Assembly (NCBI GenBank): GCA_023248995.1
Contig: JAHFDN010000001.1
Span: forward strand, 51,249-115,248
Direction of reading: 5' to 3'
Origin: Candidatus Rokuibacteriota bacterium
Lineage (GTDB): Bacteria; Methylomirabilota; Methylomirabilia; Rokubacteriales; CSP1-6
Length of the DNA: 64,000 bases
Numbering within the stretch: position 1 is the first letter of the stretch; every line of letters begins with the position of its first letter. The notes below the pieces were generated by a model, which saw only the letters and a program-made list of their open reading frames with translations, was not told the origin of the DNA and searched no databases. Shown piece after piece: positions 22,679-60,127 of the stretch. A program made the position numbers and the translations under genes.

Positions 22679-22973
22679 GGGAGGCTTGCCCCAGCTGGAA
22701 ACCGAGCTCGCGCGACTTCGCGCTCTTCGGCGGGTGCGGGTAGAGCGTGATCCGCTTGATGCTGTAGTAGAGGCAGTAGATCTGCCGGGTCGCCTCCTCG
22801 TCGTAGGCCTGGAGGCAGAGCCAGTTCTCCCGCGTCTGGAGGAAGCTCCGGACGTGGAGGACGCTGCCGTCGTCCAGGAGGAATTCCACCACGGGGCTGG
22901 CCACCTTGTGCTCGCGGGCGAAGGACCGCGCCTGCTCCTGGAAGTGCTGCTCGAAGAAGGCCCGGTCAAACAT
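22671..22973 (-). CDS. Hypothetical 100-aa protein inside the arg operon (possible Sm-like fold)
   Basis: Host-like codon usage; overlaps both the argF stop and the argG start. Confidence 0.75.
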
Positions 22974-23883
22974 CGCCGCTTCCGGTGAGGTGCAGGATCA
23001 CCGCCTTCTGGGCGTGCAGCCGGTTTTCCGACTGCTCCAGGACGATGCTCTGCGGCCCGTCGAGGACGGCCTCGGTGATCTCCTCCCCGCGGCGGGCGGG
23101 CAGACAGTGCATCACGAGCGCCCCAGGCTTGGCCAAGCCCACCAGGCGCTCGTTCACCTGATACCGCCGGAACGCCTCGAGCCGTGTCGCCCGCTCGGCT
23201 TCCTGCCCCATGCTGACCCAGACATCCGTGTACAGGACGTCCGCCCCCTCGGCGGCCTCGCGCGGGTCGGTCGTGAGCTTCAGGTGTCCGCCCAGCGCGC
23301 GCACCGCGGCCTGGATCTCGGGGGCCGGGGCGTACCCGGGCGGCGTGGCGACCGCCATCGGAGTGGCGAGGAGCGCGGCCAGGAGCAGCAGCGAGTGGCA
23401 GACGTTGTTCCCGTCCCCGATCCAGGCGAGCCGGGTCCGGCCGAGGTCCACGCCGCGCTCCCAGAGCGTGAAGAAATCGGCGAGGGCCTGGCAGGGGTGC
23501 TCGAGGTCCGAGAGGGCGTTGATCACCGGGACCGTCGCGTGGGCCGCGAGCGTCGCGACGGTGGCGTGAGCGAGGGTGCGTGCTGCGATGAGGTCCACCC
23601 AGCGGCTCAGATTTCGCGCGACGTCCGGGATGGACTCGCGCTCGCCGAGTCCGATCTCCTGAGCCGGGAGGTAGATCGCCGCCCCTCCCAGTTGCGTCAT
23701 GCCGACCTCGAAGGTGACGCGGGTGCGGAGGGACTGCTTTTCGAAGATCAGCGCGATGCTCTTGCCGGCCAGCGGTGCCGTCCGGTCCCCGGACTTCTGG
23801 CGGGCCTTGAGGGTCGCAGTGAGCCGGAAGAGGCTCAGGACGTCCTCCCGGCGCAGATCCCGGATCGACAGGAGGTGGTTCAT
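22966..23883 (-). CDS. argF: Ornithine carbamoyltransferase
   Basis: [29 protein letters not shown]. Confidence 0.96.
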
Positions 23884-23887
23884 GAGC

Positions 23888-25084
23888 TCATGCCGCTTGC
23901 GCCGCCAGCGCCGCACCCAGGATGGCCAGCGCCCGATCGCACGTGGCCTCGTCCACGATGAGCGGCGGCGCCAGCCTCAGCACCGTGTCGCCCGCGGTGA
24001 GGATCAGCAAGCCAGCCTCCCGGCACGCCGTCACGACCGGGGCCGCCGGCCGTGCCATCTCGACGCCGAGAAGGAGGCCCTTGCCGCGCACGTCCCGGAT
24101 CACGGGGTGCCGGGCCTTGAGCCCCTGGAGACCGGCGGTGAGATGTCTGCCCACGCGGGCCGCACGCTCGGGGAGCTTCTCCTCGAGCAATGTCTCGAGG
24201 GCCGCGAGCCCCACCGCGGTGACGAACGGCGTTCCCCCGAAGGTGGAGGCGTGGCTGCCGGGCGTGAGCGCCTGCCCGATGGGGTCGCGCGTGATCATGG
24301 CGCCGATGGGGATCCCGTTCGCCAGCGCCTTGGCGAGCGTCATGACGTCCGGCTCGACGCCCGAGTGCTGGTAGGCCCAGAGCTTTCCCGTCCGCCCCAT
24401 GCCCGTCTGGATCTCGTCCAGGATCAAGAGCGCGCCCGCCTCGTCGCAGAGCTTCCGGAGTCCCGGCAGATAGTCGTCGTCCGGAACGATCACGCCGCCC
24501 TCGCCCTGGATCGGCTCGACGAGGACCGCGGCGGTCCGACTGTCCAGGGCGAGCTCCACGGCGCGCAGGTCGTTGTAGGGAACGTGCTTGAAGCCGGGCA
24601 CGAGGGGCTCGAACCCGCGCTGGTACTTCTCCTGGCCCGTGGCGGTCAGCGTGGCCAGCGTGCGCCCGTGGAAGGAATTGCGGGCCGCGATGATCTCGTA
24701 GCGGTCGCTCGCGAGGTGCTCGCGGGCGTACTTGCGGGCCAGCTTGATGGCCGCCTCGTTGGCCTCGGCGCCGGAGTTGCAGAAAAAGACCCGGTCGCCG
24801 AAGGAGTGCTCGCAGAGAAGCTTGGCCAGGCGGGCCTGGGGCGCCGTGTAGAAGAGGTTCGAGGTGTGGATGAGCGTCGCGGCCGCCTCCCGGATGGCCT
24901 CCGTGACCCTGGGATGACAGTGACCGAGCGCGACGACCGCGATGCCGCCGGTGAAGTCCAGGTATTCGCGCCCGTCGGAGTCCCAGACCCGGACCCCCTC
25001 GCCTCGCACCAGGCAGATCGGCGCCCGGGTATAGGTGGGGACGTGGAATCGGTTCGACCACTCGATCAGCGTTTTGGTGTCCAC
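23888..25084 (-). CDS. argD: Acetylornithine aminotransferase
   Basis: NSGAEANEAAIKLARK, FHGRT, EPIQGEGG, DEIQTGMGRTG, LAKAL. Confidence 0.95.
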   Translation of the reverse strand: MDTKTLIEWSNRFHVPTYTRAPICLVRGEGVRVWDSDGREYLDFTGGIAVVALGHCHPRVTEAIREAAATLIHTSNLFYTAPQARLAKLLCEHSFGDRVFFCNSGAEANEAAIKLARKYAREHLASDRYEIIAARNSFHGRTLATLTATGQEKYQRGFEPLVPGFKHVPYNDLRAVELALDSRTAAVLVEPIQGEGGVIVPDDDYLPGLRKLCDEAGALLILDEIQTGMGRTGKLWAYQHSGVEPDVMTLAKALANGIPIGAMITRDPIGQALTPGSHASTFGGTPFVTAVGLAALETLLEEKLPERAARVGRHLTAGLQGLKARHPVIRDVRGKGLLLGVEMARPAAPVVTACREAGLLILTAGDTVLRLAPPLIVDEATCDRALAILGAALAAQAA

Positions 25085-25094
25085 GCGCCCTCCG

Positions 25095-25988
25095 TTACAG
25101 CACGATTTCGGTGCCGATGCCTGCGTTGGTGAAGATCTCCAGCAGGATCGCGTGCGGAATGCGGCCGTCGATGATGTGGCACTTCGCCGTCCCGCCTTCC
25201 AGCGCCTTGAGCGACGACTCCACCTTGGGAAGCATCCCGCCTTCGATCACGCCGCCCTTGATCAGCCGCTCGGCGTCCTTCCGGGTGAGCGTGCAGAGCA
25301 GCGTGCCATCCTCCCCCTGGATCCCCTGCACGTCCGTCAGGTGGATGAGCTTCTCGGCCGTCAGCGCGGCCGCCACGTTGCCGGCCACCAGGTCGGCGTT
25401 GATGTTGTAGGTTTCCCCCGCTGCCCCGACGCCGACGGGCGCGATGACCGGGATGAAGCCGTTCTGCTCCAGGAGGCGAATGACCTGAGGGTTCACCTCC
25501 TCGACCTCGCCGACCAGCCCGATGTCCACCTCCTGGCCGTCCGGCGTCCGATGGGCGAGGCGGCGCGCCCGGATCAGGTTGCCGTCCTTGCCCGACAGGC
25601 CGACGGCCCGGCCGCCGTGATGGTTGATCAGGCCCACGATCTCCTTGTTGATCCTGCCGACGAGGACCATCTCGACGATCTCCATCGTCTCGTCGTCGGT
25701 GACCCGCATACCGCCCACGAAATGAGGCTCCTTGCCCAGACGCTTCATGAGGGCTCCGATCTGCGGTCCCCCGCCGTGGACGATGACGGGGTTGATGCCC
25801 ACGTACCGGAGCAGGATCACGTCCAGGGCGAAGGATTCCTTGAGGCCGGGCTGCTCCAGGGCGGCCCCGCCGTACTTGATGACCAGGGTCTTGCCCTGGA
25901 AGGCCCGGATGTACGGCAAGGCCTCCATGAGGATCTCGGCACGCTGGATCAAGGGGGTCATCTGGGGGCTGTCCATGCGCGCGCTCAC
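25095..25988 (-). CDS. argB: Acetylglutamate kinase
   Basis: [37 protein letters not shown]. Confidence 0.97.
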
Positions 25989-33076: not shown

Positions 33077-34081
33077 ATGCCCGTCGTGGACGAGGTGTCC
33101 TGGCCCTTCTACGTCTCGGCTGTGGCAACCGGGGTCGCGTTCGGCTACGTCACGCAGCGCGGCGGCTTTTGCCTCACCCGGGCTCTCTCGAACCTCTTCC
33201 TCATGGGCGACGCCACCATCGTGCGCGCCTATCTGCTCGCCCTGTTCGTCGCGACCGTCGGGGTCCACCTCATCCTGGGCGCGGGGCTGGTCCAGATCCC
33301 GATCCGCCCGTTTCACTGGCTCGGAAACCTCCTGGGTGGCTTCCTGTTCGGCGTCGGCATGATCCTCGCGGGCGGGTGCTCCGGCAGCACCTGGTACCGG
33401 GTCGGGGAGGGGGCGGTCGGCGCGTGGATCGTGCTCTTGGCATTCGCCATGGGTGCGACCACCACGAGCGTGGGGATTCTGGCCCCCGCGCGGCGAGCGC
33501 TTCAGGGTCCCACGGTGACGGTGGACGGTGTCTCTCCGACCCTGGCGAGCCTGATCGGGGTCTCGCCCTGGGCGGTCATCGGCGTCCTGGGTGTTCTGCT
33601 AGCGATCTTCCTCTGGCGAGGGAGCCCGGAGCCGGAGCACGCGAAGTGGCCGTGGGCCGTGACGGGAGTTGCCGTCGGCATGCTCATCGCCGTCGGCTGG
33701 TGGACCTCCAGCTTCGACCAGGCGCCCACGGGGATCACCTTCGCCAGCAACACCGGGCAGGCTCTCACGTACCCGCTCGTGGGCTATCCGAATCGCGTGA
33801 ACTGGAGCATGGTCCTCCTGGTGGGGGTTCCCATCGGGGCGTTCCTGGCGGCCTGGCGAGCGGGAGAGTTCCGGTGGAAGCTTCCGCCAGGCTGGAGCCT
33901 GGTCCAGCTCTTCGCCGGGGGGCTCCTCATGGGGACGGCTGCGATCCTCGCCGAGGGGTGCAACATCACCCAGGGGCTGACGCACTCGGCCACGCTCGCC
34001 CTCGGAAGCCTCGTGGCCTTCGGCGCCATGTGGGTCGGCGCCTACGCCGCCGTCTGGGTGATGTTCCTCAGAAAGGGCTAG
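33077..34081 (+). CDS. YeeE/YedE (TsuA-like) sulfur/thiosulfate transporter
   Basis: Multiple TM helices; three conserved Cys motifs RGGFC, AGGCSG, AEGCNI. True start may be GTG 33086. Confidence 0.9.
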   Translation: MPVVDEVSWPFYVSAVATGVAFGYVTQRGGFCLTRALSNLFLMGDATIVRAYLLALFVATVGVHLILGAGLVQIPIRPFHWLGNLLGGFLFGVGMILAGGCSGSTWYRVGEGAVGAWIVLLAFAMGATTTSVGILAPARRALQGPTVTVDGVSPTLASLIGVSPWAVIGVLGVLLAIFLWRGSPEPEHAKWPWAVTGVAVGMLIAVGWWTSSFDQAPTGITFASNTGQALTYPLVGYPNRVNWSMVLLVGVPIGAFLAAWRAGEFRWKLPPGWSLVQLFAGGLLMGTAAILAEGCNITQGLTHSATLALGSLVAFGAMWVGAYAAVWVMFLRKG

Positions 34082-34094
34082 CCGGCCGCCGCAC

Positions 34095-35063
34095 CTACCT
34101 CGCCGAGATCACGATCCCGTGAGGGTCGGACTCAGCGGTGAGCCCCACCTTGATTGTGTGGGTCTTGGTGTTCGTGGCGAGGTTGACCACGTCCACCGCG
34201 TGGGCACGGCGGCTGGTCACCCAGAGCTCCATCCCGTCGGGAGAGAGGTCAAGGATATCCGGGAGCTCTGAGACGGGAACCTTGGCCAGGACTTTCCGGC
34301 CGGGAACGTCCAGCACCGCCACGAAGTGCTCCTTTCGGACGGAGACGTAGGCGCGCTTGCCGTCCTTGGAAAGCACGATGCCGTGCGTGTCAGCGCCGAT
34401 TTTGATCTCGGCGACCACCTCGTCTTTCTTCGTATCGATCACCGAAACGATATTGTCGCCCCCCTCGGTAACCCAAACCTCGCCGCCTCCAGGGGCGGTC
34501 ACGGTCCCCATGGTGTCCTTACCCGCGAAGAGCTTCTTGATCACCTCGCCCGACGCCGTGGCAATCACGTAGACGTCGCCTGAACCACCGTTGGCGACGT
34601 AACCCTTCTTCCCGTCCGGGGTGAAGGTGACCAGCATGGGCTTGCTTCCCACCTTGATGGTGCGGACCACCTTTTGGCTGGCCAGATCGATGACCGACAC
34701 GGTGTCGGCCTGGACGTTGGCCGTCCAGAGCTGCTTCTCGTTGGGGGTCAACGTGACCCCGTGGGTCCCCTTGTCGGCGGGGATCACGGCCACTTCGGTC
34801 TTGGAGGCGGGATCGAAGACGGAGACCGAGCCGGACCCGACGTTGGCGGTGTAGAGCCACTTACCATCCTTGGTCAGGGCCGCGTTGTGGGGCTTGACTT
34901 GAGAGATCTTTACTGTCTCAATGACTTTTTTGGTCTTTCCGTCAATGATCGAGATAGAGTTCTCCCCCTGGTTCGTGACGTAGACCGTATAGGCCATTGC
35001 CGGCGCGACCACTGTCAGGGCGAGCAGGAAAGCGGTGAAAATAAAGAGAGAGCGTCGCAGCAT
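34095..35063 (-). CDS. Secreted YVTN-type 7-bladed beta-propeller
   Basis: Sec signal ending APAMA; seven repeats of P/T-x-G...S/TPDG..Y-V-x-N...VSVID. Confidence 0.9.
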   Translation of the reverse strand: MLRRSLFIFTAFLLALTVVAPAMAYTVYVTNQGENSISIIDGKTKKVIETVKISQVKPHNAALTKDGKWLYTANVGSGSVSVFDPASKTEVAVIPADKGTHGVTLTPNEKQLWTANVQADTVSVIDLASQKVVRTIKVGSKPMLVTFTPDGKKGYVANGGSGDVYVIATASGEVIKKLFAGKDTMGTVTAPGGGEVWVTEGGDNIVSVIDTKKDEVVAEIKIGADTHGIVLSKDGKRAYVSVRKEHFVAVLDVPGRKVLAKVPVSELPDILDLSPDGMELWVTSRRAHAVDVVNLATNTKTHTIKVGLTAESDPHGIVISAR

Positions 35064-35089
35064 GGACTTTCCTCCATCACGCGGCCGAG

Positions 35090-35857
35090 CTAGGCCGCAG
35101 GGTGAATAGCCTGGGCAGCCTCCCAACGCTGGCCCTGGCTGTTGATGAACACGATACGGAGTGTGCCTCCGCCGCTGATTTTCAACGGGAATCGGATCAA
35201 CGGGTTCGGGCTGACCGCCGAGGTCATCTGAAACTCGCTGATCTTCTGGTCGTCGAGGAAGACGAGCATCTGCCTGACGTAGAACTCGGGCTGCTCGCGG
35301 ACGAACTTTCCGCCCTGGAGGGCGAGGCCAGTGTAGGAGTTGTGGTCCAGCTTGGTCCGCACCTCCACCACCTCGCCTGCCCGGAGCGAGCGCGGCAGCC
35401 GGATCATCGGGTTTCCGAGACGCTCTCGCGCCATTTTCTCAGGGGCAGTCGTACAGCCGCCCTCTGCGACGCGGACCTCTCGGGCGCCCGTGAAGCGACC
35501 GTGGCGGGTGCACTCGCCTACGACCTTGACGACCCCGCCGATCCCGGAGCGGAAATGAAAAGCCACCCACGCCCGGCCGTTGGCCGGCGTAAAAAAGAAT
35601 TTTCCCTTGTAGGCGACGGGGTCCGTCTCCAGGCTCACCTCGAGCGACCGAATAAAATGGGCGGGCTCCATCGGATGGTCCATGGAGATCTGGAGGGGAA
35701 CGGCCACCGGATCCTCCGCCAGTACCGGGAGGTCGATCTGGGGCCGGTGGGCTGACTCCCCCTTTTCCTGCGCCCACGAGCCACGGGAAACCAGGGCCGG
35801 CGAGAGACCGGCGACGAGCGATCCGGCCATGAACTTCCTTCGGTTGAGAATTGTCAT
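35090..35857 (-). CDS. Tat-exported SoxY-SoxZ fusion with superoxide-reductase-like metal motifs
   Basis: NRRKF twin-arginine signal; LAEDPVAVP (SoxY), GGC arm, HNSYTGL and AVSPNPLIRF (SoxZ); HRP, HPMEPAHFI and CTRHG (SOR-like). Confidence 0.85.
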   Translation of the reverse strand: MTILNRRKFMAGSLVAGLSPALVSRGSWAQEKGESAHRPQIDLPVLAEDPVAVPLQISMDHPMEPAHFIRSLEVSLETDPVAYKGKFFFTPANGRAWVAFHFRSGIGGVVKVVGECTRHGRFTGAREVRVAEGGCTTAPEKMARERLGNPMIRLPRSLRAGEVVEVRTKLDHNSYTGLALQGGKFVREQPEFYVRQMLVFLDDQKISEFQMTSAVSPNPLIRFPLKISGGGTLRIVFINSQGQRWEAAQAIHPAA

Positions 35858-35876: not shown

Positions 35877-35904
35877 CTATAATGTGCCGGAACGATCCTG
35901 TCAA
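35876..35904 (-). promoter_or_regulatory. Sigma70 promoter of the SoxYZ-propeller operon
   Basis: TTGACA-17 nt-TATAGT. Confidence 0.8.
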
Positions 35905-37127
35905 GCCCCATCGTGCGGCGGCAGCGGCTTCAGGAGAATGACCGTGACCTCTCCCCCGGGGGGAATCGTGCTATCGGGAGGCACCACCGCGAGCCCGTCC
36001 GCCGCGACCATGGAGGTGACAATCGCCGATCCCTGGTCGCCGGTCAGCCGGGCGCCGTACCCCTGGCGATCCGCGGTGAGCCTCACGCGGAGATATCCCC
36101 GCCGCCCGCCCGGGTTCGGGATCGGCGCGAGAGCCCGGGCGCGGAGCATCGGGCGATGAAGTGCCGAGTGGCCGGCCATCTTCCGGAGGGCCGGTCGGAC
36201 GAAGAGCTCGAACGTCACCATGGCTGACACCGGGTTTCCGGGAAGCCCGAAGATCGGCCGGTCGCCCACGGAGCCGAAGGTGATGGGCTTGCCGGGACGC
36301 ATGGAGACCTTCCAGAGGTGCTGCTCCGCTCCGAGGCGGGTGAGCGCCTCTCGCACGAAGTCGTATTCCCCCACCGAGACGCCTGCCGAGGAGATCAGGG
36401 CGTCCGCGGCGAGCCCCCAGCGGAGTTGTTCCTCGATCGCCTCGCGGCGGTCCGGCGCCAGGCCCACGTTGACGGGTTCAGCGCCCGCCTCGAGGACCTG
36501 GGCCATCAGGGCGTAGGTGTTCGAGTTCCGGATTTTCCCAGGCCCGAGCGGCGTCCCGAGGTCTACCACTTCGTCTCCCGTCGAAAGGATCGCCACGCGG
36601 GGACGCCGGAAGACCAGCGGGCGCGACTGACCCAAGGTCGCCAGGAGCCCGACCTCGGCCGGGCCGATGACCTTCCCCGGCTCGAGCGCCGTCTCCCCCG
36701 CCCGGATGTCTTCGCCGAGCGGCCGGACGAAGACTCCGGGCTGGACGAATCGCCGAACGCGGATGCGCTCACCGAGCGTCTCGACCTCTTCCTGGGGAAC
36801 GACGCTGTCCGCTCCTTCGGGCAGCGGGGCCCCGGTGAAGATCCTGAATGCCTCGTCTCGCTCGAGCGGGCGGGCGGCGACCAACCCCGCCGGGATCGTT
36901 CCCACGACGCTCAGCTCGGTCGGCCGCTCGGGGGTCGCTCCACGCGTGTCGGACGAGCGCACGGCGTAGCCGTCCATGGACGAATTTGGCCACGGGGGGA
37001 TGTCCCCCGCGGCGACGGACGGCTCGGCGAGCACCCGCCCCAGGCACGCCAGGAGGTCTGTCCGTTCGGTGCCGAGCCGGTGGACGCGAGAGAGAATCTG
37101 CTCGAGGGCTTCTTCGACGGACAGCAC
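35901..37127 (-). CDS. moeA: Molybdopterin molybdenumtransferase
   Basis: SSMDGYAVRS, IFTGAPLPEGADSVV, STGDE, MRPGKP, GLPGNPVS. Confidence 0.96.
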   Translation of the reverse strand: MLSVEEALEQILSRVHRLGTERTDLLACLGRVLAEPSVAAGDIPPWPNSSMDGYAVRSSDTRGATPERPTELSVVGTIPAGLVAARPLERDEAFRIFTGAPLPEGADSVVPQEEVETLGERIRVRRFVQPGVFVRPLGEDIRAGETALEPGKVIGPAEVGLLATLGQSRPLVFRRPRVAILSTGDEVVDLGTPLGPGKIRNSNTYALMAQVLEAGAEPVNVGLAPDRREAIEEQLRWGLAADALISSAGVSVGEYDFVREALTRLGAEQHLWKVSMRPGKPITFGSVGDRPIFGLPGNPVSAMVTFELFVRPALRKMAGHSALHRPMLRARALAPIPNPGGRRGYLRVRLTADRQGYGARLTGDQGSAIVTSMVAADGLAVVPPDSTIPPGGEVTVILLKPLPPHDGA

Positions 37128-37160: not shown

Positions 37161-38279
37161 TCAGGCGTGAAGCCGGGCGAGAAACCAGTCGCGGCTCAGG
37201 ATGAACAGGGACAGGAAGCCGGCCGTGATGAGCATCTCGGTGAGACCGCTCGGAAAGGCGGCCCCCGCCGAGATGGATGGAACGACGAGCATCACCCGCT
37301 CCAGGAAGAGCGCCACGAGGCCCAGCAGGGTCACGAGGACCAAGGGGCCGTGCCGCTCCGGCGGCCGGCCGGTGAGCCGCTTCAGGAGGTAGACGAAGGG
37401 GAGCACCCACCCCACGACGAAGATCACGAAGGCGAGCAGCCGCCAGGGATCCACGAAGAATCTACGGAGAAAGAACTTGGTCTCGACGGGGACGTTCCCG
37501 TACCAGATGACCAGGTATTGCGACCAGAAGAAGTACATCCAGAGCGTGCTCGTGGCGAAGACCAGCTTGGCCACGTCCTGGACCGCGGCGGGGGGGATGG
37601 CGGCCAGCCCCGTGGCGTTGGCGCGCACGCTCAGAACGGCCAGGAGGGCGAAGCCGGCGTAGAGCGTGCTGACGACGAAGTACCCGCCGAAAAGCCCGCT
37701 GTACCACCGAGGGTCGAGGGACATGACGAGGTCGAAGCCGAAGAGCGACAGCACGACCACGTAGAGGAAAAGCACGGCGGTCGCCAGGGCGGCGCGCCGT
37801 CCCTTGTCTCGCCGCTCCGTCTCGGGGTCGGCCGTTCCTTGCCTGAAACCGGCGCGCACGAAGGCGAAGGTAAGCGCGTAGAGGACCAGGATCCCCACGC
37901 CGATGCGGGTGGCCATGAAGGGGACATTCAGCCAGGCCGCTTTGACCGGGATCGGGCTCGTCACCCACGGGTAGAGCGTGGCGCGGCCGCCGAAGAGAAT
38001 CAGGAAGAGGACGAACGAGACGGGGAGAAAGCCGGCCGTGGTCAGCGCGATCCGCTTGACGCCCGGCGACCAGCGGGCTTCCATGAGTTCCATCATCGCG
38101 GCGATCGCCGGCCCGGTCACCGCGAGCCCGGACCAGAAAACCAGGTTGATCAGGTAAATCGCCCAGGTCCGCTCGGCCGCCCGAGTCACCCCGAGGACAA
38201 ACGCAGCACCCCCGGCGAGGGCGATCGCCGCCAAGAAAAGCCGCGACCCCGGGGATAAGCGCTGTCCTCGGGCGATCAT
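37161..38279 (-). CDS. actF: Alternative complex III subunit F (NrfD-like membrane protein)
   Basis: KAAWLNVPF, DLVMSLDPRWYSGLFG, WMYFFWSQYLVIWYGNVPVE. Confidence 0.85.
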   Translation of the reverse strand: MIARGQRLSPGSRLFLAAIALAGGAAFVLGVTRAAERTWAIYLINLVFWSGLAVTGPAIAAMMELMEARWSPGVKRIALTTAGFLPVSFVLFLILFGGRATLYPWVTSPIPVKAAWLNVPFMATRIGVGILVLYALTFAFVRAGFRQGTADPETERRDKGRRAALATAVLFLYVVVLSLFGFDLVMSLDPRWYSGLFGGYFVVSTLYAGFALLAVLSVRANATGLAAIPPAAVQDVAKLVFATSTLWMYFFWSQYLVIWYGNVPVETKFFLRRFFVDPWRLLAFVIFVVGWVLPFVYLLKRLTGRPPERHGPLVLVTLLGLVALFLERVMLVVPSISAGAAFPSGLTEMLITAGFLSLFILSRDWFLARLHA

Positions 38280-38779
38280 TTGGCGGCGATGCTCCTCAGG
38301 TAATGCACGACGTCCCAGCGCTCCTCGGCGGACAGGGCTTCGCCGTAGGCGGGCATCACCGCTCCGCCGGTGCCGATGACGTGCTGGAGGTAGCCGTCGG
38401 TCCGCGCCTTCTGGATGGAGGGATGGGTGATGTCGGGAGGGGGGATGAACTTCGGCGAAACCAGCCCGTCTCCCTTCCCTCCGGCCCCGTGGCAGGGGGT
38501 GCAGTAGATCGCGAACAGAGCCTTGCCGCGCGCCACCGATTCGGGCGTGGCCTTGACGGGGTTCGGTCGCCGTGCGGCGAGATCCCGCGCTTCGCGCGGC
38601 GGCGTCAACTCGCCCCCGGAGCGCGGCAGGGTGCCGGCCGGCATCTCGAAGGTCCGCTCGCCGGGAACGATCTTGGGGGTACTGGTCATGTTGTCGGTCC
38701 AGCGCAGGACAATGACGCCTCCCATCAATCCCCCCGCCGCGAGGATCGTCAGGAGGACCAGGCCGAAGACGTACTTCAC
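38276..38779 (-). CDS. actE: Alternative complex III subunit E (monoheme cytochrome c)
   Basis: N-terminal TM helix, CTPCH, GDGLV, MPAYG. Confidence 0.88.
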   Translation of the reverse strand: MKYVFGLVLLTILAAGGLMGGVIVLRWTDNMTSTPKIVPGERTFEMPAGTLPRSGGELTPPREARDLAARRPNPVKATPESVARGKALFAIYCTPCHGAGGKGDGLVSPKFIPPPDITHPSIQKARTDGYLQHVIGTGGAVMPAYGEALSAEERWDVVHYLRSIAAK

Positions 38780-39282
38780 CGCCGCACCTCCTCCGCCCCC
38801 GCCTCCTGAAGGCATGTGCGGACGGCGGCGACCAGGTCCGGGGAACAGGTGACCGCGATCCCGAAGCGATCCACCGTGAAGCGCGGGTCATAGGTGGGCG
38901 AACGGCGGAGCGACGGGAGCTTCCCCAGCACCAGGATCGCCAGCAGTGAGGACAGGCCTCCCAGGAGAATCGTCAGCTCGAAGGCGATGATCACGAAGGG
39001 CGGGATCGAGACGATGGGCTTCGCGCCGGTGACCAGGCCCCACTTCAGCGAGGTCCAGATCGGGAGGGCGAATCCCGTCACGGTCCCCGTGAGCCCACCG
39101 ATGAGCGTGAACAAGCGGACGGGACTCACCGGTCGGCCTTCCTCCAACGCCGCCTCGATCTCTTCCACCGGGACCGGCAGATAGACGGAAAAGTCGGTGA
39201 ACCCCCGAGCCCGTAAGTCCCGGATCGCCCTGACGGTCGAATCCACGTGGGCAAAGATACCGAGGATGCAGGCGGCGGCCAT
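38776..39282 (-). CDS. actD: Alternative complex III subunit D (DUF3341)
   Basis: GAKPIVSIPPFVIIAFELTILL, YDPRFTVDRFGI. Confidence 0.88.
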   Translation of the reverse strand: MAAACILGIFAHVDSTVRAIRDLRARGFTDFSVYLPVPVEEIEAALEEGRPVSPVRLFTLIGGLTGTVTGFALPIWTSLKWGLVTGAKPIVSIPPFVIIAFELTILLGGLSSLLAILVLGKLPSLRRSPTYDPRFTVDRFGIAVTCSPDLVAAVRTCLQEAGAEEVRR

Positions 39283-40616
39283 CAGTGGTGAGGGTCCTTC
39301 AGGGGATGTGGGAGGGTTTCTTTGACCTCGACGATCGAGACGGAGGGCATCACCTTGATGAACCCGAGGAAGAGGATGAAGAACCAGGCGAAGCTACCGA
39401 TCACGATGAGGGTATCGGTCAGCGTTGGGTAGTAGATCCCCCACGTGTACGGGTAGAAGTCATGCCCGAGACCGGGGACGATGATGTTGAAGCGCTCGAA
39501 CCACATCCCGATCAACACGAGAATCGACACGACGTACAGAGTGGGGGGATGAATCCGAGCGCGCCGGGAGAAAAGGACGAGGGGCACCAGGCTGTTACAG
39601 AAGTACTGGAGCCAGAACGCCCAGGCGTAGTTCCGTGTGGCCTTCCAGAAGAGCGAGGCCCGCTCGAAGTGATCGCCGCTGTACCACGCGGTGAACGCCT
39701 CGCAGACGTAGAAGTACGTGAGGACGAGGCTGGTGACGAGGATCAGCTTCGCGATGGCGTCCAGGTGCCGGTTGGTGATGTAGGCGTAAAGGTTGAACAG
39801 CGGCCGCATCGGGATGATCAGGACCAGGACCATGGCGAAGCCCGAAAAGATCGCGCCGTCCACGAAGAACGGGGCGAACAGCGTCGAATGCCACCCGGGG
39901 ACGAGCGCCATCGCAAAGTCCCAGGAGACCACGCTGTGTACCGACAGCACCAGCGGTGTGGCCAAGGCCGCCAAGAGCCCGTAGGCCCGTCGGTAGTGGC
40001 GCCACTGTCGATCCGTCCCCTCCCAGCCGAGGGCGAGAACACCGTAGATCTTCCGCTTCCAGCCGGTCGAGGCGTCGCGGATGGCGGCAATGTCCGGGAG
40101 CAACCCCACGGAGAAGAAGACCACGCTGATCGTCAGGTAGGTGGAGATGGCGAAGACATCCCAGACGAGCGGCGATCGGAAGTTCGGCCAGAGGTAGCGC
40201 TGGTTCGGGTACGGGAGCAGCCAGTAGGCGAACCACATGCGGCCGGCGTGGATGAGGGGGAAGAGCCCGGCGGTCATGACCGCGAACACCGTCATCGCTT
40301 CGGCGCCGCGATAAATCGAGGTACGCCAGCGAGCCCGGAACAGGTACAGGATCGCCGAGATGAGGGTCCCGGCGTGACCGATGCCGATCCAGAATACGAA
40401 GGACGTGATGTACATCGCCCAGTTCTGGGGCGTCCGCTTTCCCGCAGCCCCCATGCCGATGTAGATCTGCCACGTCCACGCCAGGATCCCCGCGGTCAGG
40501 ATCAGCCCGACGATCGACATCCAGCCGAAGTAGGCTGGTGAGGGCGTCCAGAGGGTGCCGATGACGTCCCGGTTGACGTCGGCGTAGGTCGGCTGGTGGG
40601 CGTCGTCCCGCCTCAT
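39282..40616 (-). CDS. actC: Alternative complex III subunit C (quinol-binding NrfD protein)
   Basis: FVFWIGIGHAGTLISAIL, PNFRSPLVWDVFAISTY, LSVHSVVSWDFA, GMWFERF. Confidence 0.95.
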   Translation of the reverse strand: MRRDDAHQPTYADVNRDVIGTLWTPSPAYFGWMSIVGLILTAGILAWTWQIYIGMGAAGKRTPQNWAMYITSFVFWIGIGHAGTLISAILYLFRARWRTSIYRGAEAMTVFAVMTAGLFPLIHAGRMWFAYWLLPYPNQRYLWPNFRSPLVWDVFAISTYLTISVVFFSVGLLPDIAAIRDASTGWKRKIYGVLALGWEGTDRQWRHYRRAYGLLAALATPLVLSVHSVVSWDFAMALVPGWHSTLFAPFFVDGAIFSGFAMVLVLIIPMRPLFNLYAYITNRHLDAIAKLILVTSLVLTYFYVCEAFTAWYSGDHFERASLFWKATRNYAWAFWLQYFCNSLVPLVLFSRRARIHPPTLYVVSILVLIGMWFERFNIIVPGLGHDFYPYTWGIYYPTLTDTLIVIGSFAWFFILFLGFIKVMPSVSIVEVKETLPHPLKDPHH

Positions 40617-43564
40617 GTCTTGCCGTGGTCGCGGGTGACCTTCTTGAGGTAGGTAATCGCGGGCCGGGTCCCGAGCTCGTCCAGCACATGGTAGCCGCGC
40701 GGCGACCGAGACACCCTGGACGCCCGGCTCGACGGGTCCTTCAGGTTGCCGAAGACGATCGCCTGTGTGGGACAGGTCTGCTGGCAGGCGGTCAGGATAT
40801 CGCCGTCCGTCACCTTGCGCCCCTCATCGCGGGCACGGTCCTTCCCCCCGATAATCCGCTGGATGCACATCGTGCACTTCTCCATGACCCCCAACTGGCG
40901 GACCGTGACGTCCGGGTTGAGCTGGAGAGGCAGCGGATCGGGGAAGGCGTAGCTGCTGGACGCCGGAGAGCCGTAATCCCACCAGTTGAACCGCCGCACG
41001 TGGTAGGGACAGTTGTTGTTGCAGTAGCGCGTGCCGACGCAGCGATTGTAGACCTGAGCGTTGAGCCCCTCCTGCGTATGGTAGCTGGCGAAGACCGGGC
41101 AGACCGGCTCGCACGGGGCGACCTCGCAGTGCTGGCAGAGCATAGGCAGGAAGAGCGTGTCGGGATGGTGTGGGGGGCCCTCCTGCCAGCGCTCGATGCG
41201 GAGCCAGTGCATGTCGCGCCCGTAGGCGACCTGTTCCTTTCCCACCACCGGAACGTTGTTCTCCGCCTTGCACGCGATCACGCAGGCCTGGCATCCGATG
41301 CACGAGTCCACGTCGATCGTCATTCCCCAGCGGTACTCGGGATACTTGAGATCGGGATACATGCTGGGGTGGCTGGCCTTCTCGGGGACCGCACCCCGGA
41401 GCTCCAGCTCGCGGGCGGCGGTCAACCCCACGTGCTGCGCGAGTTCCCGTTCATCCTGGTTGGCCGTCGCCTGGGGAATGGCCAGGGGACGCCGGCCCCC
41501 GGTCTTGGTCAGCGTGAGCCTGACGGACAGGAAGGCGAGACCTCCCGGCGTCGGTGCTTGAGGCAGGAGGGCCAGGGGATTGGCGCCTCGATCTTTCGCG
41601 TAGCGGCCGTACCTGGTGTGCCCTTGGCCGATGGGAATGGCAACGGCATCCGGGTGGAGCGACTCGGAGATGTAGGCCGGTAGCTCGATCGCGCCGTGGG
41701 GGGAAGCGATCCTCACCAGATCGCCCTGGCGGACCTGGAGCGTCCTGGCGCGCTCGGCGGGAATTTCCGCCCAGGAGTCCCACGCCACCTGAGTCATGCT
41801 GTCGGGGGCTTCCTGGAGCCAGGGCTTGTTGGCGCCGCGCCCGTCGTAGAAGCGCAATGAGGGGTACGTGAGGAGCGTCGGCCCCTGGGCGCCGTCCTCG
41901 GTCGCCGTTCGCTTGCTCGCCATGGCGACCGGCTGCGCCTTCACCGGGACCGTCGGCACCCCCCTCCAGACGCCACCCCGCCGGAGCGCTTCTTCCCAGA
42001 ACTGGTCGAAGGGGGTGCCGGGGGCGACCTCCCTGGCGATCCCCCGCCATTGCTCCTTCAAGTAATCCTGGAAGGTCGCCCAGCGAAGTGGGCCTTTCCC
42101 CTCAGCCGAGCGCAGCGCCTGGCGGCCCACGGCGATGAGGACGTCGCCGACGGCTCTCGAGCCGAAGACCGGGGCCATCGTCGGCTGCATCAGCCCAACG
42201 ACGCCTTCGCGCGGCGAGAAATCACCCCAGGACTCGAGCGGATGGAGATCGGGCAGGATGAGGTGAGCGTGCTCGCTGGTCTCGTCCGGCTGGTTCGCGA
42301 AGCTCACGACCAGCGGCACTTTCTTGAGGGCATCGGCGAAGGCGGTCGTGGCGGGCAGGGTGAAGACCGGGTTCGCGTGGACCACGAGGAGGACCTCGAT
42401 CTCCCCTCTCCTCATGCTCTCGGTCAGGGCCAGCACGTCGGCGTACGAGCTCGCCTTGCCGAAGGCCGAGTCCGGGCCGAAGCGGACCGTTCGCCCCACG
42501 TTGCCCGTTGCGTAGTTCAAGAGGTGGATTGCCACCTGGACGTCCACCGCGTCGATCCCCGTGACCGCCACCCCGCCGCCGACGGCGAGCCCGGGCTTGG
42601 CCTTGGCGAGGGCGCGGGCCACGCGCTTGATGGTTTCCGCGGGGACGCCCGACTGGCGGGCGATCGCCCCGACGTCCGGCGCGCCGATCGCGCCTCTGAG
42701 CGCCGCCAGGTCCACGCCCGGGGCCTGGAGCCCTTCGTCGAGGATCACCTTGAGGAGCGCCACGGCGAGGAGCCTCTCGGTTCCCGGCGTATTCCGGATC
42801 CACTCATCAGCGTTGGCGGCGGTCATCGAGAGCCGCGGCTCCACATGGATCGAGGTGCCCGCCCTGCCGTGCGCCAGCGCGTGCATCCGGGCGAAGCCGC
42901 GGGCGTGGGCCACCGGCGACAGCCAGGTCTCCAGGAAGTCCGCGCCGAAGGAGAGGACGACATTCGCGTCCTCGAACGCGTAGTCGGGGATCGCGTCGCG
43001 GCCGAAGACCACGCGACTTGCGGCGCGAACCGCCTCGTAGTTGAAGGGCTCGTAGGCGACCCGGCGGCGCGCCCCCAGGGCCCCGCCCCACGCGTCCATC
43101 AGCCGGCCGAGGCTCCCGCTCTCGAGCTGGGTCAGGACCGCGATCCGGCGGCCCTGTTTGTCCTTGATGAGCGCGGCCAGGCGCTCGGCGAGGAATTTCT
43201 CGGCTTCTTCCCAGGCGACGGGCTTGGGGGCGCCCGACGCGTCGCGCCGGAGCGGCCCCCGCACCCGGTCCGGGTTGTAAAGCCCCTGGAGACCGGCCTG
43301 GCCGCGGATGCACAACGTCCCGCGATTCACCGGGTGGTCGGGATTGCCCTCGAGCTTGACGATGCGTCCTTCGCGGTTGCGTGCGACGACGCCGCAACCC
43401 GCCGGGCATTCGCGACAGACCGAGGAGAACCACGAGGCGACACCAGGCACGAGGTTATCGGGCGGGATCACCAGAGGCAGGATCTGCTCCGGGCTTCGGG
43501 CGCACCCGGTCATCGCCGCCGCGGTCGAGGCGCCGACGATCTTAAAGAAGTCCCGCCGCTTCAT
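40613..43564 (-). CDS. actB: Alternative complex III subunit B (molybdopterin-oxidoreductase-like plus Fe-S domain)
   Basis: KRRDFFK Tat signal, KLEGNPDHP, GANKPWLQE, CIGCQACVIACKAENN, CQHCEVAPCEPVCP, CVGTRYCNNNCPY, MEKCTMC. Confidence 0.93.
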   Translation of the reverse strand: MKRRDFFKIVGASTAAAMTGCARSPEQILPLVIPPDNLVPGVASWFSSVCRECPAGCGVVARNREGRIVKLEGNPDHPVNRGTLCIRGQAGLQGLYNPDRVRGPLRRDASGAPKPVAWEEAEKFLAERLAALIKDKQGRRIAVLTQLESGSLGRLMDAWGGALGARRRVAYEPFNYEAVRAASRVVFGRDAIPDYAFEDANVVLSFGADFLETWLSPVAHARGFARMHALAHGRAGTSIHVEPRLSMTAANADEWIRNTPGTERLLAVALLKVILDEGLQAPGVDLAALRGAIGAPDVGAIARQSGVPAETIKRVARALAKAKPGLAVGGGVAVTGIDAVDVQVAIHLLNYATGNVGRTVRFGPDSAFGKASSYADVLALTESMRRGEIEVLLVVHANPVFTLPATTAFADALKKVPLVVSFANQPDETSEHAHLILPDLHPLESWGDFSPREGVVGLMQPTMAPVFGSRAVGDVLIAVGRQALRSAEGKGPLRWATFQDYLKEQWRGIAREVAPGTPFDQFWEEALRRGGVWRGVPTVPVKAQPVAMASKRTATEDGAQGPTLLTYPSLRFYDGRGANKPWLQEAPDSMTQVAWDSWAEIPAERARTLQVRQGDLVRIASPHGAIELPAYISESLHPDAVAIPIGQGHTRYGRYAKDRGANPLALLPQAPTPGGLAFLSVRLTLTKTGGRRPLAIPQATANQDERELAQHVGLTAARELELRGAVPEKASHPSMYPDLKYPEYRWGMTIDVDSCIGCQACVIACKAENNVPVVGKEQVAYGRDMHWLRIERWQEGPPHHPDTLFLPMLCQHCEVAPCEPVCPVFASYHTQEGLNAQVYNRCVGTRYCNNNCPYHVRRFNWWDYGSPASSSYAFPDPLPLQLNPDVTVRQLGVMEKCTMCIQRIIGGKDRARDEGRKVTDGDILTACQQTCPTQAIVFGNLKDPSSRASRVSRSPRGYHVLDELGTRPAITYLKKVTRDHGKT

Positions 43565-43586
43565 CGCGCTCTCGCCCCCTCGTCGT

Positions 43587-44165
43587 TCAATGATGACAGA
43601 CCACGCACTCGAGCGGCGCCTTGGTCTGCTTCGTGGCGTTCATCGTCGTGTGGCATTCTACGCACCAGCCCATGGTCAGCGGGGTCGAGGACCGCGCCAG
43701 GCCCAGGAGGTTCAGGAGGTCGTTGGTCAGGTTCTGTCCCGTCGTGGCCCCGACGACAGCCATGGTTTCGACGGGTCCGTGGCACGTCTGGCACGTGACT
43801 TCGGCGCGGACGTGCGGCTTGTGCGGGAAGTGGACGTACTCGGGAACCTTGAACACGCGAACCCATGGGATCGGTTTTTTCTCGTTGAAGAACGCCGCCA
43901 GCTTCTGGATCTCCGGACGGTCGGCCGCCGTGATCTTGTGGCAGCCCATGCAGCGCGAGACCGAGGGAAGCCCGGCGTACTCGGAGCGTCGCGCGTCCGC
44001 GTGGCAGTACTGGCAGTTGATCTTGTACTGCCCGGCGTGGATCTGGTGGCTGAAGGCGATGGGCTGGGCCGGAGCGGCGGGCTGGGCGCCGGCGGAATGC
44101 GCCAGGGAGAGGATGGCGGCGAAGAGCGCGAGAGTCGCTACGCCGACGCCCACCTGTCTCCTCAT
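43587..44165 (-). CDS. actA: Alternative complex III subunit A (pentaheme cytochrome c)
   Basis: QPIAFSHQIH; five CxxCH motifs (CQYCH, CMGCH, CQTCH, CVECH, CVVCH); LTMGWC. Confidence 0.93.
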   Translation of the reverse strand: MRRQVGVGVATLALFAAILSLAHSAGAQPAAPAQPIAFSHQIHAGQYKINCQYCHADARRSEYAGLPSVSRCMGCHKITAADRPEIQKLAAFFNEKKPIPWVRVFKVPEYVHFPHKPHVRAEVTCQTCHGPVETMAVVGATTGQNLTNDLLNLLGLARSSTPLTMGWCVECHTTMNATKQTKAPLECVVCHH

Positions 44166-45580: not shown

Positions 45581-46042
45581 TCAGAATCCCTTCAGCGTCA
45601 CGGGGAGAAACTCGCGCCGATCCTGGCTCCACGCGAACGCGGCCGCACCCGACAGCCTTCCGCCCAGAACCGAGACGACCACGTACGTCGCGTCGGGATA
45701 GATGGGCTCGCCCTGGAGGAGGGCGTTCTGCTTGTCGGTCTCCGAGAAGTATGCGCCCGCGTCGATGTGGGAGTGGTAGATCGTCCTCACCCGGTATCCT
45801 TCGCCTTCCAGGCGTCCAATCCGGAGAAGATCCTTCGGGTCGACCTGGTAGGCGACCCGCGCGTCGCGCGGGTGCCGGGACGGGTCCTTGATGTGGAGCT
45901 CGTTCTGAATGTTCCGGCAGGCGACCACGAGCCGATCGCCCGGCGCGCCGTTCCGCTCGAGCACGACGCCGCAGCATTCGGACGGGTATTCGGTCTCGGC
46001 TTGGGCGCGGATCCGCTCGAATTCCTCGCGGCCGAGGATCAT
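45581..46042 (-). CDS. JAMM/MPN+ metallopeptidase (Mec/CysO-cysteine peptidase-like)
   Basis: YPSECCG; [15 protein letters not shown] (HxH-x7-S-x2-D JAMM motif). Confidence 0.9.
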
Positions 46043-46317
46043 CGCCCTCCGGCCAGCGCCGGGATGATCGTCACCTCGTCGCCGTCCTTGAGCGGCGTCG
46101 CGAGGCCCTCGAGGGCGTCGATAGCCTCGCTGTTGACGTAGATGTTCACGTGAGCATGCACCTCGCCCCGATCGTTTCGCACCAGGCCCTTGAGCCCGCC
46201 GAACGTGTCCTCGAGCCGATCCAGGAGGCGGCCGACGTTCGGCGCCTCGACCTCGACCTTGTCTTTGTTGTTGGTCGCCCGTCGGAACGGGGTCGGAATG
46301 TACACCTGCACTGGCAT
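46039..46317 (-). CDS. MoaD/ThiS/CysO-type ubiquitin-like sulfur carrier
   Basis: [31 protein letters not shown]. Confidence 0.92.
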   Translation of the reverse strand: MPVQVYIPTPFRRATNNKDKVEVEAPNVGRLLDRLEDTFGGLKGLVRNDRGEVHAHVNIYVNSEAIDALEGLATPLKDGDEVTIIPALAGGR

Positions 46318-46351
46318 ACGCACGCCTCCTCGAAACGCCCCGGCCCTTTTT

Positions 46352-47296
46352 CTAGAACGTCAGGCTCAGGTAGCGCTCGCCCGTGTCGGGCAAGATGGTC
46401 ACGACGACCTGCTCGGGGTCGAGCCGCGCGGCCACCTGGCAGGCGGCAAACACGGCGGCGCCCGCCGATATTCCCACAAGCAGCCCTTCCTCGCGCGTCA
46501 GGCGTTTGGCCGTCGTGATGGCGTCCTCGTCCCGCACCTGGATGATCTCGTCGAGCACCTTGGGGTTCAGCACGCCCGGGACGAAGGAAGCCCCGATCCC
46601 CTGGATGGCGTGCGGGCGGCCCCTGCCGCCGGACAGAACGGGGGAGCGGGCCGGCTCCACGGCCACGATCTTGACGCCCGGCACCTTCTCCTTGAGCACC
46701 TCCCCGACCCCCGTGATGGTTCCCCCCGTCCCGACCCCGGCGACGAAGGCGTGGATCCGCCCCATGGTGGCGTCGAGAATCTCGAGCGCCGTCGTTCGCC
46801 GGTGGATCTCGGGGTTCGCCGGGTTCTCGAACTGCTGGGGCATGAAGTAGTCGGGATGCTCCCGGACGAGCTCCTGGGCGGCGTGCACGGCCCCGGTCAT
46901 CCCTTCGATCGCCGGCGTCAGGTGGAGCTCCGCGCCGAGTCGGGCCAGGAGCCGCTGGCGTTCCACGCTCATGTCGTCCGGCATGGTCAGGATCAGCCGG
47001 TACTGCCGCACCGCCGAAACGATCGCCAGGCCGATTCCGGTGTTGCCGCTGGTGGGCTCGACGATGGTGGACCCCGGCCTGAGCAGCCCGCGCCGCTCGG
47101 CGTCGTCGATCATGCTGACGGCGATGCGGTCCTTCACGCTTCCGCCCGGGTTGAGGGATTCGAGCTTCGCGAGCACGGTCGCGCCGCCCGGACTGGGCAG
47201 GCGGTTGAGTCGGACGAGCGGGGTACTGCCGACCAGCTCCAGCACGGACGCGGCGATCTTGGGGCGGTCCGTCGCTTCTCCTCGGCGTTGCGCCAT
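46352..47296 (-). CDS. cysK: Cysteine synthase A
   Basis: [53 protein letters not shown]. Confidence 0.95.
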
Positions 47297-47341
47297 GGCG
47301 CCCTTTCCTATCGAGGTGTCGTGGTTTGCCGGCAAAAAAAA

Positions 47342-48830: not shown

Positions 48831-48843
48831 TGGGCGGCTCCTT

Positions 48844-56199: not shown

Positions 56200-56202
56200 C
56201 GG

Positions 56203-56970: not shown

Positions 56971-56972
56971 GG

Positions 56973-60050: not shown

Positions 60051-60127
60051 CGTCGCACCTCCTGTGAGCCGTCTCCGCAAGACGACCTTGTGAGAAGTTT
60101 CTCGTGCATTCCTCCCAACTGCGCCTG

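Follow-up and report, generated by a model that had tools for sequence, protein, structure and literature searches.

SoxYZ, the carrier at the centre of thiosulfate and sulfur oxidation in bacteria, is considered free of metal; superoxide reductase (SOR) is considered a stress enzyme that anaerobes keep in the cytoplasm. A gene on the minus strand of a 64,000-nucleotide stretch of a Candidatus Rokuibacteriota genome (hereafter the window, in which all positions are counted unless a contig or locus is named), at 35090-35857, raises the question of whether the two can be united in one exported protein and, if so, what an iron centre would do on a sulfur carrier. A first-pass annotation of the letters alone had proposed such a protein, i.e., a SoxY-SoxZ carrier with a built-in SOR-type His4Cys iron site. 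The analyses reported here place this protein (hereafter the target) in a widespread SoxYZ family that has the complete SOR ligand set, otherwise known only from superoxide reductases, and that is without a curated model or a searchable paper describing it. We favour, at a probability of roughly 0.55, the reading that the target is an iron-bearing SoxYZ-type carrier, exported by the twin-arginine (Tat) route, whose Fe centre is a redox module within a non-canonical periplasmic sulfur-oxidation module.

Domain composition of the gene product

The open reading frame (ORF) at 35090-35857 translates into 255 amino acids plus a stop codon; the start at 35857 was preferred over an upstream ATG at 35911 because homologues start at the same position. 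The protein begins with MTILNRRKFMAGS..., i.e., a twin-arginine motif followed by a hydrophobic stretch and by SWA29, after which the signal is probably cleaved. The pair RR is found in 112 of 121 close homologues (alignment including the query); the Pfam model TAT_signal (12.2 bits, cut-off 22.7) and the NCBIfam Tat models stayed under their cut-offs on the target. The motifs and residue numbers of the first-pass annotation (SAH37RP, DH61PMEPAH67FI, EC116TRH119G and EGGC135) all agree with the translation. The parts of the gene are:

35090..35857, minus strand: whole gene, encoding Tat signal, SoxY/SOR-type domain, GGC arm and SoxZ domain (translation; Pfam SoxY, Desulfoferrodox and SoxZ above cut-offs)
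35771..35857, minus strand: signal peptide, residues 1-29, with twin-arginine motif NRRKFM (motif read directly from the sequence)
35453..35770, minus strand: N-domain, residues 30-135, SoxY-like beta-sandwich with SOR centre-II ligands and E34 (Pfam, PDB sequence matches, conservation, structure matches)
35747-35749, minus strand: codon of H37 (translation)
35675-35677, minus strand: codon of H61 (translation)
35657-35659, minus strand: codon of H67 (translation)
35510-35512, minus strand: codon of C116 (translation)
35501-35503, minus strand: codon of H119 (translation)
35417..35467, minus strand: flexible arm/linker, residues 131-147, with carrier Cys135 in EGGC (Cys135 codon 35453-35455; Cys135 conservation, lowered model confidence)
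35093..35416, minus strand: SoxZ domain, residues 148-255 (Pfam SoxZ 60.2 bits; structure matches)

The three Pfam hidden Markov models suited to checking this composition all exceeded their curated cut-offs, i.e., SoxZ (60.2 bits, cut-off 25, residues 153-248), SoxY (PF13501; 55.5 bits, cut-off 28.4, residues 35-135) and Desulfoferrodox (PF01880; 39.4 bits, cut-off 22.2, E = 9.3e-10, residues 30-120), the last overlapping the SoxY match, and the SoxY-like half is a Desulfoferrodoxin-type domain. No NCBIfam model reached its own cut-off on the target. The best match was the fused SoxYZ-like carrier TIGR04557 (97 bits, cut-off 140); the models for the SOR domain (TIGR00332, 17.4 against 61.9), for the true thiosulfate-oxidation SoxY (TIGR04488, 34.3 bits against 125) and for SoxZ (TIGR04490, 46.6 against 76) scored lower, and NCBIfam was found to hold no curated model for the SOR-type SoxYZ family.

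When the target alone was compared with PDB sequences (phmmer), it matched SoxZ (2e-5) and the SOR of Ignicoccus hospitalis (4bk8_A, E = 4.4e-5), with H37, HPMxxxH and CxxHG aligned on the corresponding motifs of that SOR, in which these positions are the Fe ligands; the resemblance thus goes beyond a motif that arose by chance. A profile of 32 family members matched 15 distinct SOR/desulfoferrodoxin sequences in all (e.g., 4brj at 3.8e-13 and 2amu at 1.1e-9) as well as SoxY (4uwq_B at 1.1e-9, 2ox5_Y at 8e-6 and 2nnc at 2e-5) and SoxZ. The family therefore bridges two separately curated families and, as far as sequence profiles can tell, joins SoxY to SOR.

Conservation of the ligands and of the arm cysteine

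A first search returned 419 homologues, and 120 of the 120 matches listed carry all three Pfam families. The named ones among them are Rokubacteria or Methylomirabilota metagenome bins, and their source labels read "SoxY", "SoxZ", "desulfoferrodoxin (superoxide reductase-like protein)" or "predicted secreted protein". In a close set of 121 sequences (58-91% identity to the query), H37 and H61 are each kept in 120 sequences and H67, C116, H119 and Cys135 in all 121, with many other positions variable. Cys135 is also invariant in a 72-sequence alignment (A1).

An exhaustive search of 50%-identity representatives yielded 409 proteins at E ≤0.001, the best 150 of which were examined; 82 that do not span the six positions, being fragments or SoxZ alone, were set aside. 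In the 68 representatives left, the ligand set is complete in 28; four ligands are found in 6, three in 2, two in 1 and one in 7, and 24 lack all five, whereas the arm Cys is present in 65. The co-conservation of the five ligands and the conservation of the GGC cysteine, both anticipated by the first-pass annotation, thus extend from close to diverse homologues; the ligands are mostly retained or lost jointly, as expected of one functional site, and the arm Cys appears, from the alignments, to be a more general family feature than the metal ligands.

The absence of the E-K pair before the first His, also reported in that annotation, holds for one residue of the two. The family consensus here is E-(K/R)-x-H-x-P, and the classical SORs of three loci (L056-L058) read E-K-K-H with equal spacing. 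The target has E34 at position -3 from H37, i.e., Glu is present at its family-conserved place, and Ser35 at the Lys/Arg position, where the basic residue is lost. In the close set, E or D stands at -3 in 103 sequences and R at the Lys/Arg position in 69. Taken together, the Glu loop and a set of ligands that is mostly either complete or missing point to a metal bound as in SOR centre II, and on these sequence grounds it is highly probable that the target binds metal.

The same residues could belong to a protein that is in the first place a periplasmic SOR with a Tat signal (TAT-SOR). The SoxY and SoxZ parts would then be scaffold, Cys135 would be at most a thiol that re-reduces the iron, and the protein would protect periplasmic respiratory enzymes from superoxide. 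This alternative is favoured by the retention of the five ligands plus Glu in a family with the loop E-(K/R)-x-H, and by the lack of a second Desulfoferrodox match in the window's genome. On the other hand, the catalytic Lys/Arg is missing in the window copy, and the arm Cys is retained in relatives that lack any metal ligand and hence points to an older core function. We regard a primary role as superoxide reductase as unlikely, though far from fanciful.

The family also includes stand-alone forms of 154-170 residues with an RR signal, all ligands and a C-terminus reading exactly ...GGC (a homologue search from one of these, P0165, gave 11 matches with uninformative names); relatives without the ligands are of the TIGR04557 kind, i.e., fused SoxYZ-like proteins. 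In a maximum-likelihood domain tree (71 sequences, 106 columns, LG+G4), ligand-less proteins and canonical SoxY are separated from Fe-type proteins and SORs with an ultrafast bootstrap (UFBoot) of 92 without sequence P0173 and of 85 with it. Four of the five SORs form one clade (UFBoot 97) beside three Fe-type fused proteins (89). The SOR of locus L059 was poorly aligned and misplaced, so rooting on SORs failed and the tree is read as an unrooted split only.

Predicted structure and probable separation of the arm from the putative iron site

An AlphaFold2 model built from alignment A1 reached a mean predicted local distance difference test (pLDDT) of 88.9 and a predicted TM-score of 0.82, with low confidence only at the signal peptide (pLDDT about 50) and residues 131-150 (64-75 in the arm/linker). 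The C-terminal half matches SoxZ (2oxg_E, Z 10.9, root-mean-square deviation (rmsd) 1.4 over 99 residues; 2ox5_Z, Z 10.7). The N-terminal half matches SORs 4brv_A (Z 9.7, rmsd 2.5 over 104), 4bk8 (9.5), 2amu (8.7) and 6gq8 (8.3), on which it superposes at rmsd 2.2-2.5 Å over about 100 residues. A search made independently of Foldseek matched the same half to SoxY 2oxg_Y (Z 9.0, rmsd 1.7 over 91) and 2nnc (7.4) and to SORs (Z 8.3, 8.1, 7.2 and 6.7); unrelated immunoglobulin (Ig) domains scored Z 6.4 or less. As judged from the model, SoxY and SOR match the fold of the N-half equally well, as tied best matches, and H37, H61, H67, C116 and H119 are likely, from the alignment with SORs, to converge on one site.

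The first-pass annotation had the Cys135 arm presenting a sulfur adduct to the Fe site, which the topology of the model makes unlikely for an arm and a site of the same subunit. After H119 comes an 11-residue strand (120-130), and the arm (131-135) leaves the far end of that strand and runs into the SoxZ domain. A conserved AEDx loop, common with SoxY, lies at the arm end of the domain, within the pattern H37, strand 40-42, loop, strand 53-59, H61. Since H119 and G133-C135 are at opposite ends of a strand and the AEDx loop is at the far end, arm and iron should lie at opposite poles of the domain, separated in one chain by roughly 20 Å or more according to the model. The arm of a neighbouring subunit may nevertheless meet the Fe site in trans.

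Such a meeting is the core of a second alternative, in which the target is carrier and enzyme at once and the Fe site acts on sulfur held by a neighbouring subunit's arm, e.g., by persulfide oxidation with O2-derived species, in place of SoxCD. SoxYZ and SORs both oligomerise, ligands and arm are conserved together in the Fe-type clade, and the alternative clusters that were scanned showed no SoxCD-like gene. The probable position of the two sites at opposite domain poles within one chain speaks against this alternative, and to our knowledge no such sulfur chemistry has been described for His4Cys iron. We consider it improbable.

Gene context in relatives and canonical sox genes

Gene neighbourhoods were scanned in one genome per species, giving 56 loci, 51 of the SOR-type SoxY and the rest of classical SORs; the counts are lower bounds, as many contigs end nearby. 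Within 6 kb of the 51 SOR-type SoxY loci we found SoxZ (44 loci), cytochrome c (33), YeeE (31), a beta-propeller (28), a SoxB-like protein (22), thioredoxin-like proteins (18), SCO1 (15) and DUF302 (15), and none of these neighbours was present within 6 kb of 4 classical SOR loci. The stand-alone form ending in GGC occurs in distant taxa (SAR324, Gammaproteobacteria, Nitrospirota and Chloroflexota) together with a SoxB-like hydrolase, SoxZ, cytochrome c, a YVTN propeller and a YeeE transporter. In SAR324, Gammaproteobacteria (including Arenicellales) and others, the conserved cluster runs in the order YeeE, a lipoprotein propeller, SOR-type SoxY, a SoxB-like hydrolase (TIGR04486, 413 bits, cut-off 550), SoxZ, cytochrome c, DUF302, SCO1 and a thioredoxin-like protein. 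The order in Nitrospirota is cytochromes, SOR-type SoxY, SoxZ, cytochrome c and propeller, and at further loci of this phylum YeeE, SOR-type SoxY, SoxZ and rhodanese occur together. Locus L024 has a rhodanese gene. At three loci (L020, L023 and L052), a metallophosphoesterase, a SoxA/TsdA-like cytochrome and the fused SOR-type SoxYZ are followed by a cbb3-type haem-copper oxidase.

The proposal of a periplasmic sulfur carrier gains from these data, since SoxB-like, SoxZ, SoxA/TsdA-like cytochrome, YeeE and rhodanese neighbours in distant relatives fit it better than they fit a plain SOR. A SoxYZ-type carrier is indicated by the arm Cys and the SoxZ partner, by the GGC ending of the split forms and by the sulfur genes nearby, and we think it probable, from this sequence evidence, that the target acts as a sulfur carrier. 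The same contexts bear on a primary TAT-SOR function in both directions: several loci lie beside terminal oxidases, alternative complex III (ACIII) and cytochromes c, as would suit the protection of respiratory enzymes, whereas SoxB-like, SoxZ, YeeE and rhodanese neighbours, lacking at the 4 classical SOR loci, would be unexpected for a stress enzyme.

DUF302, SCO1/SenC and a DUF255 thioredoxin-like gene regularly end the SAR324/Gammaproteobacteria cluster (L027 11273-13925 and about 15 similar loci), a trio that hints at copper delivery to a cluster member.

The window's genome (97% complete) also has ordinary sox genes on another contig:

contig 41 of the window's genome (G000), locus L002 at 1279-1845, 1850-2182 and 2085 onward, and locus L060: canonical sox cluster, with a multi-CxxCH, SoxXA-like cytochrome

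This cluster holds a canonical soxY (RR signal, product ending VKVTVGGCGG), soxZ, the cytochrome gene and a true soxB (789.6 bits, cut-off 550); a molybdopterin oxidoreductase gene stands before it. Canonical SoxY likewise accompanies SOR-type SoxY in four of the five other genomes checked. As both types occur together in the same genomes, the SOR-type protein belongs to a parallel system and is not the organism's only SoxY. Of 40 genomes related to that of the window, 17 have a strong match to the target (at least 40% identity over at least 200 residues), several of them with two paralogues; leaving out the unpublished G014 and G028 gives 15 of 38. A second SOR-type SoxYZ paralogue occurs in many Rokubacteria and others (L020, L023 and L052; second matches of 41-42% identity in G014, G032, G034, G040 and G043), immediately upstream of a cbb3-type haem-copper oxidase and downstream of a SoxA/TsdA-like cytochrome and a metallophosphoesterase; the window's genome has one SOR-type copy only.

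The adjoining propeller and other genes of the window

The genes around the target are:

34095..35063, minus strand: YVTN/YncE-type 7-bladed beta-propeller with Sec signal (Pfam YNCE), starting 26 bases past the target stop codon
33077..34081, plus strand: YeeE/YedE (TsuA-like) sulfur-compound transporter, convergent with the cluster (Pfam Sulf_transp 232.6 bits)
35901..37127, minus strand: moeA, molybdopterin molybdenumtransferase, 43 bases upstream of the target (Pfam and NCBIfam; same order in 9 close Rokubacteria loci)
37161..44165, minus strand: ACIII-like operon upstream of the target, with ActA cytochrome, ActB Mo/FeS-like, ActC NrfD, ActD, ActE cytochrome c and ActF-like genes (Pfam; ActD PF11821 133.8 bits)

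NCBIfam models stayed under their cut-offs for TsuA on the protein of 33077-34081 and for Qrc-like proteins in the ACIII-like operon. As had been reported in the first-pass annotation for SoxAX, SoxB, SoxCD and PQQ dehydrogenase genes, the Pfam scan of 49 window ORFs turned up no SoxA, SoxX, SoxB, SoxCD or pyrroloquinoline quinone (PQQ) dehydrogenase. Ten close Rokubacteria loci show all or part of the order ACIII, moeA, target, YeeE, with the propeller absent.

The propeller at 34095-35063 is likely an operon partner of the target. Its best NCBIfam match is TIGR03866 (188.9 bits, under the cut-off of 287.3), and it shares 49% identity with the propeller next to the stand-alone SOR-type SoxY gene of a Nitrospirota locus (L048). 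A homologue search yielded the generic YVTN family (4600 matches), with the closest full-length matches 40-44% identical and orthology not separable. Inner-strand His residues stand at the "xHG/xHN" position on four blades (H59, H101, H227 and H315) and are kept in 4 of 4 orthologues, which adjoin genes of the SOR-type SoxY (loci L017, L048 and L051); a metal site in the central channel is suggested by weak NCBIfam matches, which are to lactonase-type NosZ and to hydrazine synthase beta. The SAR324-type propeller has an invariant His set of its own (H107, H108, H157 and H371; 25 sequences), and some propeller relatives carry cupredoxin domains.

A predicted complex of target (residues 30-255), propeller (25-322) and Fe gave an ipSAE of 0.54 (runs 0.52, 0.56 and 0.54), against 0.01 for the best of 3 controls; contacts agreed between runs to 97% or more, with a partner pLDDT of 92 or above. 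Of the pairs used for calibration, 58 of 80 solved complexes and 2 of 110 mismatches attained the mark, and scores of 0.60 or less were given by only 7 of the 80 solved complexes and by both mismatches that passed. The prediction lends weak support to a target-propeller complex and is at most a hint of one.

In an RNA-library run from the likely source sample, contigs at 99% identity or more covered only the propeller gene (34000-34463 and 34641-34812), and two other runs gave contigs of ~94% identity across the propeller/target junction (34592-35247 and 34960-35218); RNA libraries may contain DNA. The ~94% contigs of both runs lack one base at 35066, inside the 26-base gap between the two genes. 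A groundwater DNA run from another study (record 15) covers the whole 3.2-kb stretch in one contig at ~95%, which indicates that the target-propeller arrangement is also present in a relative.

These neighbours bring in a further alternative, in which the target is a metal-binding or chaperone protein (Cu, Zn or Fe) serving the propeller or an oxidase, or in which its ligands are a metal-free relic. In its favour, SCO1, CopCD, Cox11 and Fur genes adjoin homologues, and the propeller has its conserved His residues on four blades. A relic, however, would not stay invariant in 121 of 121 sequences or mostly all-or-none across the family, and the motif set is specifically that of SOR centre II, Glu loop included. 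We consider a chaperone or relic improbable.

Elsewhere in the window, a second molybdopterin oxidoreductase set lies at 55264-60080 on the minus strand (Mo subunit 56973-60080, 4Fe-4S subunit 56203-56970, NrfD membrane subunit 55264-56199); with its Psr/Phs/Ttr-like architecture it is a possible sulfur-compound reductase or oxidase. At 45581-47788 (minus strand), an Rrf2 regulator, a pyridoxal-phosphate-dependent CysM/CysK-like enzyme, a ThiS-like sulfur carrier and a JAB peptidase stand in a row, a layout for protein-thiocarboxylate-dependent cysteine synthesis. Two housekeeping blocks on the minus strand (47844-52009 and 21467-25988) hold genes for haem synthesis (hemB, hemC and hemA) and arginine synthesis (argB, argD, argF and argG), with hslUV and topA between these blocks and the target region.

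Comparison with known systems

The target resembles SoxYZ (Paracoccus pantotrophus 2OX5/2OXG; Thermus 4UWQ; Chlorobium SoxY 2NNC) in its Tat signal, Ig-like domain, GGC carrier-Cys arm and SoxZ partner, and the two have the motifs AEDG..VP and xPM in common. It differs in that SoxY and SoxZ are fused, so that the arm is an internal loop and not a free C-terminus; its stand-alone relatives end in ...GGC, much as canonical SoxY ends in GGCGG. In the canonical SoxY of the genome, S, S, L and D take the places of H61, H67, C116 and H119, nothing aligns at H37, and SPMTPASYV and AELSDG stand where the target reads HPMEPAHFI and GECTRHG. The two proteins are plainly homologous and differ in the ligands. 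Unlike canonical SoxYZ, the target lies far under the NCBIfam SoxY_true and SoxZ_true cut-offs and has no adjoining soxAX or soxB.

With 1Fe SOR/neelaredoxin and desulfoferrodoxin centre II (Ignicoccus hospitalis 4BK8; Thermotoga TM0658 2AMU), the target has in common the Desulfoferrodox match, the pattern H...HPMxxxH...CxxHG and the Glu before the first His. It differs from classical SORs in being exported, in its GGC arm and SoxZ domain, in its sulfur and respiratory neighbours and in the missing loop Lys.

The target is further similar to the quinoprotein dehydrogenase-associated carrier TIGR04557 (clades 2 and 4 of PMC11237559), a fused SoxY-SoxZ with an internal GGC/SGC arm, and TIGR03866, the best match of the adjacent propeller, is a family of the same system. 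Proteins of the TIGR04557 kind, on the other hand, have 0-1 of the 5 ligands and fall on the opposite side of the main tree split (UFBoot 92); the target is under the equivalog cut-off, and the 49 window ORFs gave no PQQ-type match.

A class named TAT-SOR is already in print in SORGOdb, whose available passages describe it as SOR active site II preceded by a twin-arginine signal (PMC3116461), a description that the target fits. Passages on Sulfurimonas pluma, a sulfur oxidiser, report a strongly transcribed Tat-signal 1Fe-SOR in oxygen-saturated plumes and read it as a periplasmic superoxide scavenger (PMC10066037). Both sources favour the primary TAT-SOR function considered above. The passages on TAT-SOR in the two sources have no occurrence of GGC arm, SoxY or SoxZ, and the target is likened to TAT-SOR by description only (PMC3116461, PMC10066037). 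The searchable literature, outside which lie subscription papers and supplements, yielded no paper that connects SoxY or SoxYZ to SOR, neelaredoxin or desulfoferrodoxin. PMC9324843 names both groups of terms in unrelated places, a phylogeny of SoxY clades has no occurrence of "desulfoferrodoxin" or "metal" (PMC11237559), and the available passages of PMC13500833 contain nothing linking SoxY with SOR.

Proposed function and meaning

The domains, ligand co-conservation, fold and gene contexts described above suggest a mechanism; which metal is bound, that sulfur is loaded, what the Fe site does and which partners take part are proposals of ours. The N-domain would hold a mononuclear His4Cys site with H37, H61, H67 and H119 equatorial and C116 axial, as in SOR centre II, and E34 as the likely sixth ligand in the ferric state. 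At the opposite pole, the GGC135 arm would carry sulfur adducts covalently, as in SoxY, with the SoxZ half packed beside it. The sulfur-oxidation module would run parallel to the genome's ordinary Sox system and would include the adjacent His-lined YVTN propeller, the YeeE-type transporter and respiratory c-type cytochromes; in other phyla it may also include the SoxB-like hydrolase or the SoxA/TsdA-like cytochrome. The Fe centre is most likely a redox module, either scavenging superoxide and so shielding the thiol/persulfide arm in an oxic periplasm or serving as electron exit to cytochrome c, and it is probably not a partner for the arm of the same subunit.

Several observations weigh against this proposal. 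The convergence of the five residues is drawn from homology to solved SORs, and the target copy is without the Lys/Arg of the SOR loop (S35). The window holds no SoxB-like or SoxA-like gene, and the synteny among Rokubacteria may reflect relatedness alone. Copper-handling neighbours elsewhere (SCO1, CopCD and Cox11) would also be compatible with another metal in place of Fe or with a chaperone role, and the body of the target gene was covered by no RNA-library contig in the three runs.

The family predicts an iron centre on a sulfur carrier and marks an unstudied cluster (YeeE, propeller, SOR-type SoxY, SoxB-like, SoxZ, cytochrome c and SCO1) in the abundant uncultured SAR324, Arenicellales, Nitrospirota and Rokubacteria. 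Automated annotation already names the same proteins "SoxY" and "desulfoferrodoxin", and counts of sulfur oxidisers and of SOR-bearing organisms in metagenome surveys are affected. A bolder reading, which we hold to be quite unlikely, is that SoxY and the SOR iron domain form one superfamily with the SOR-type SoxYZ family as its living link, and that the His4Cys iron is catalytic on sulfur bound to a neighbouring subunit's arm or couples it to O2-derived species. If true, this would mean a self-contained, SoxCD-independent and iron-dependent branch of periplasmic sulfur oxidation, extending from Rokubacteria to marine SAR324.

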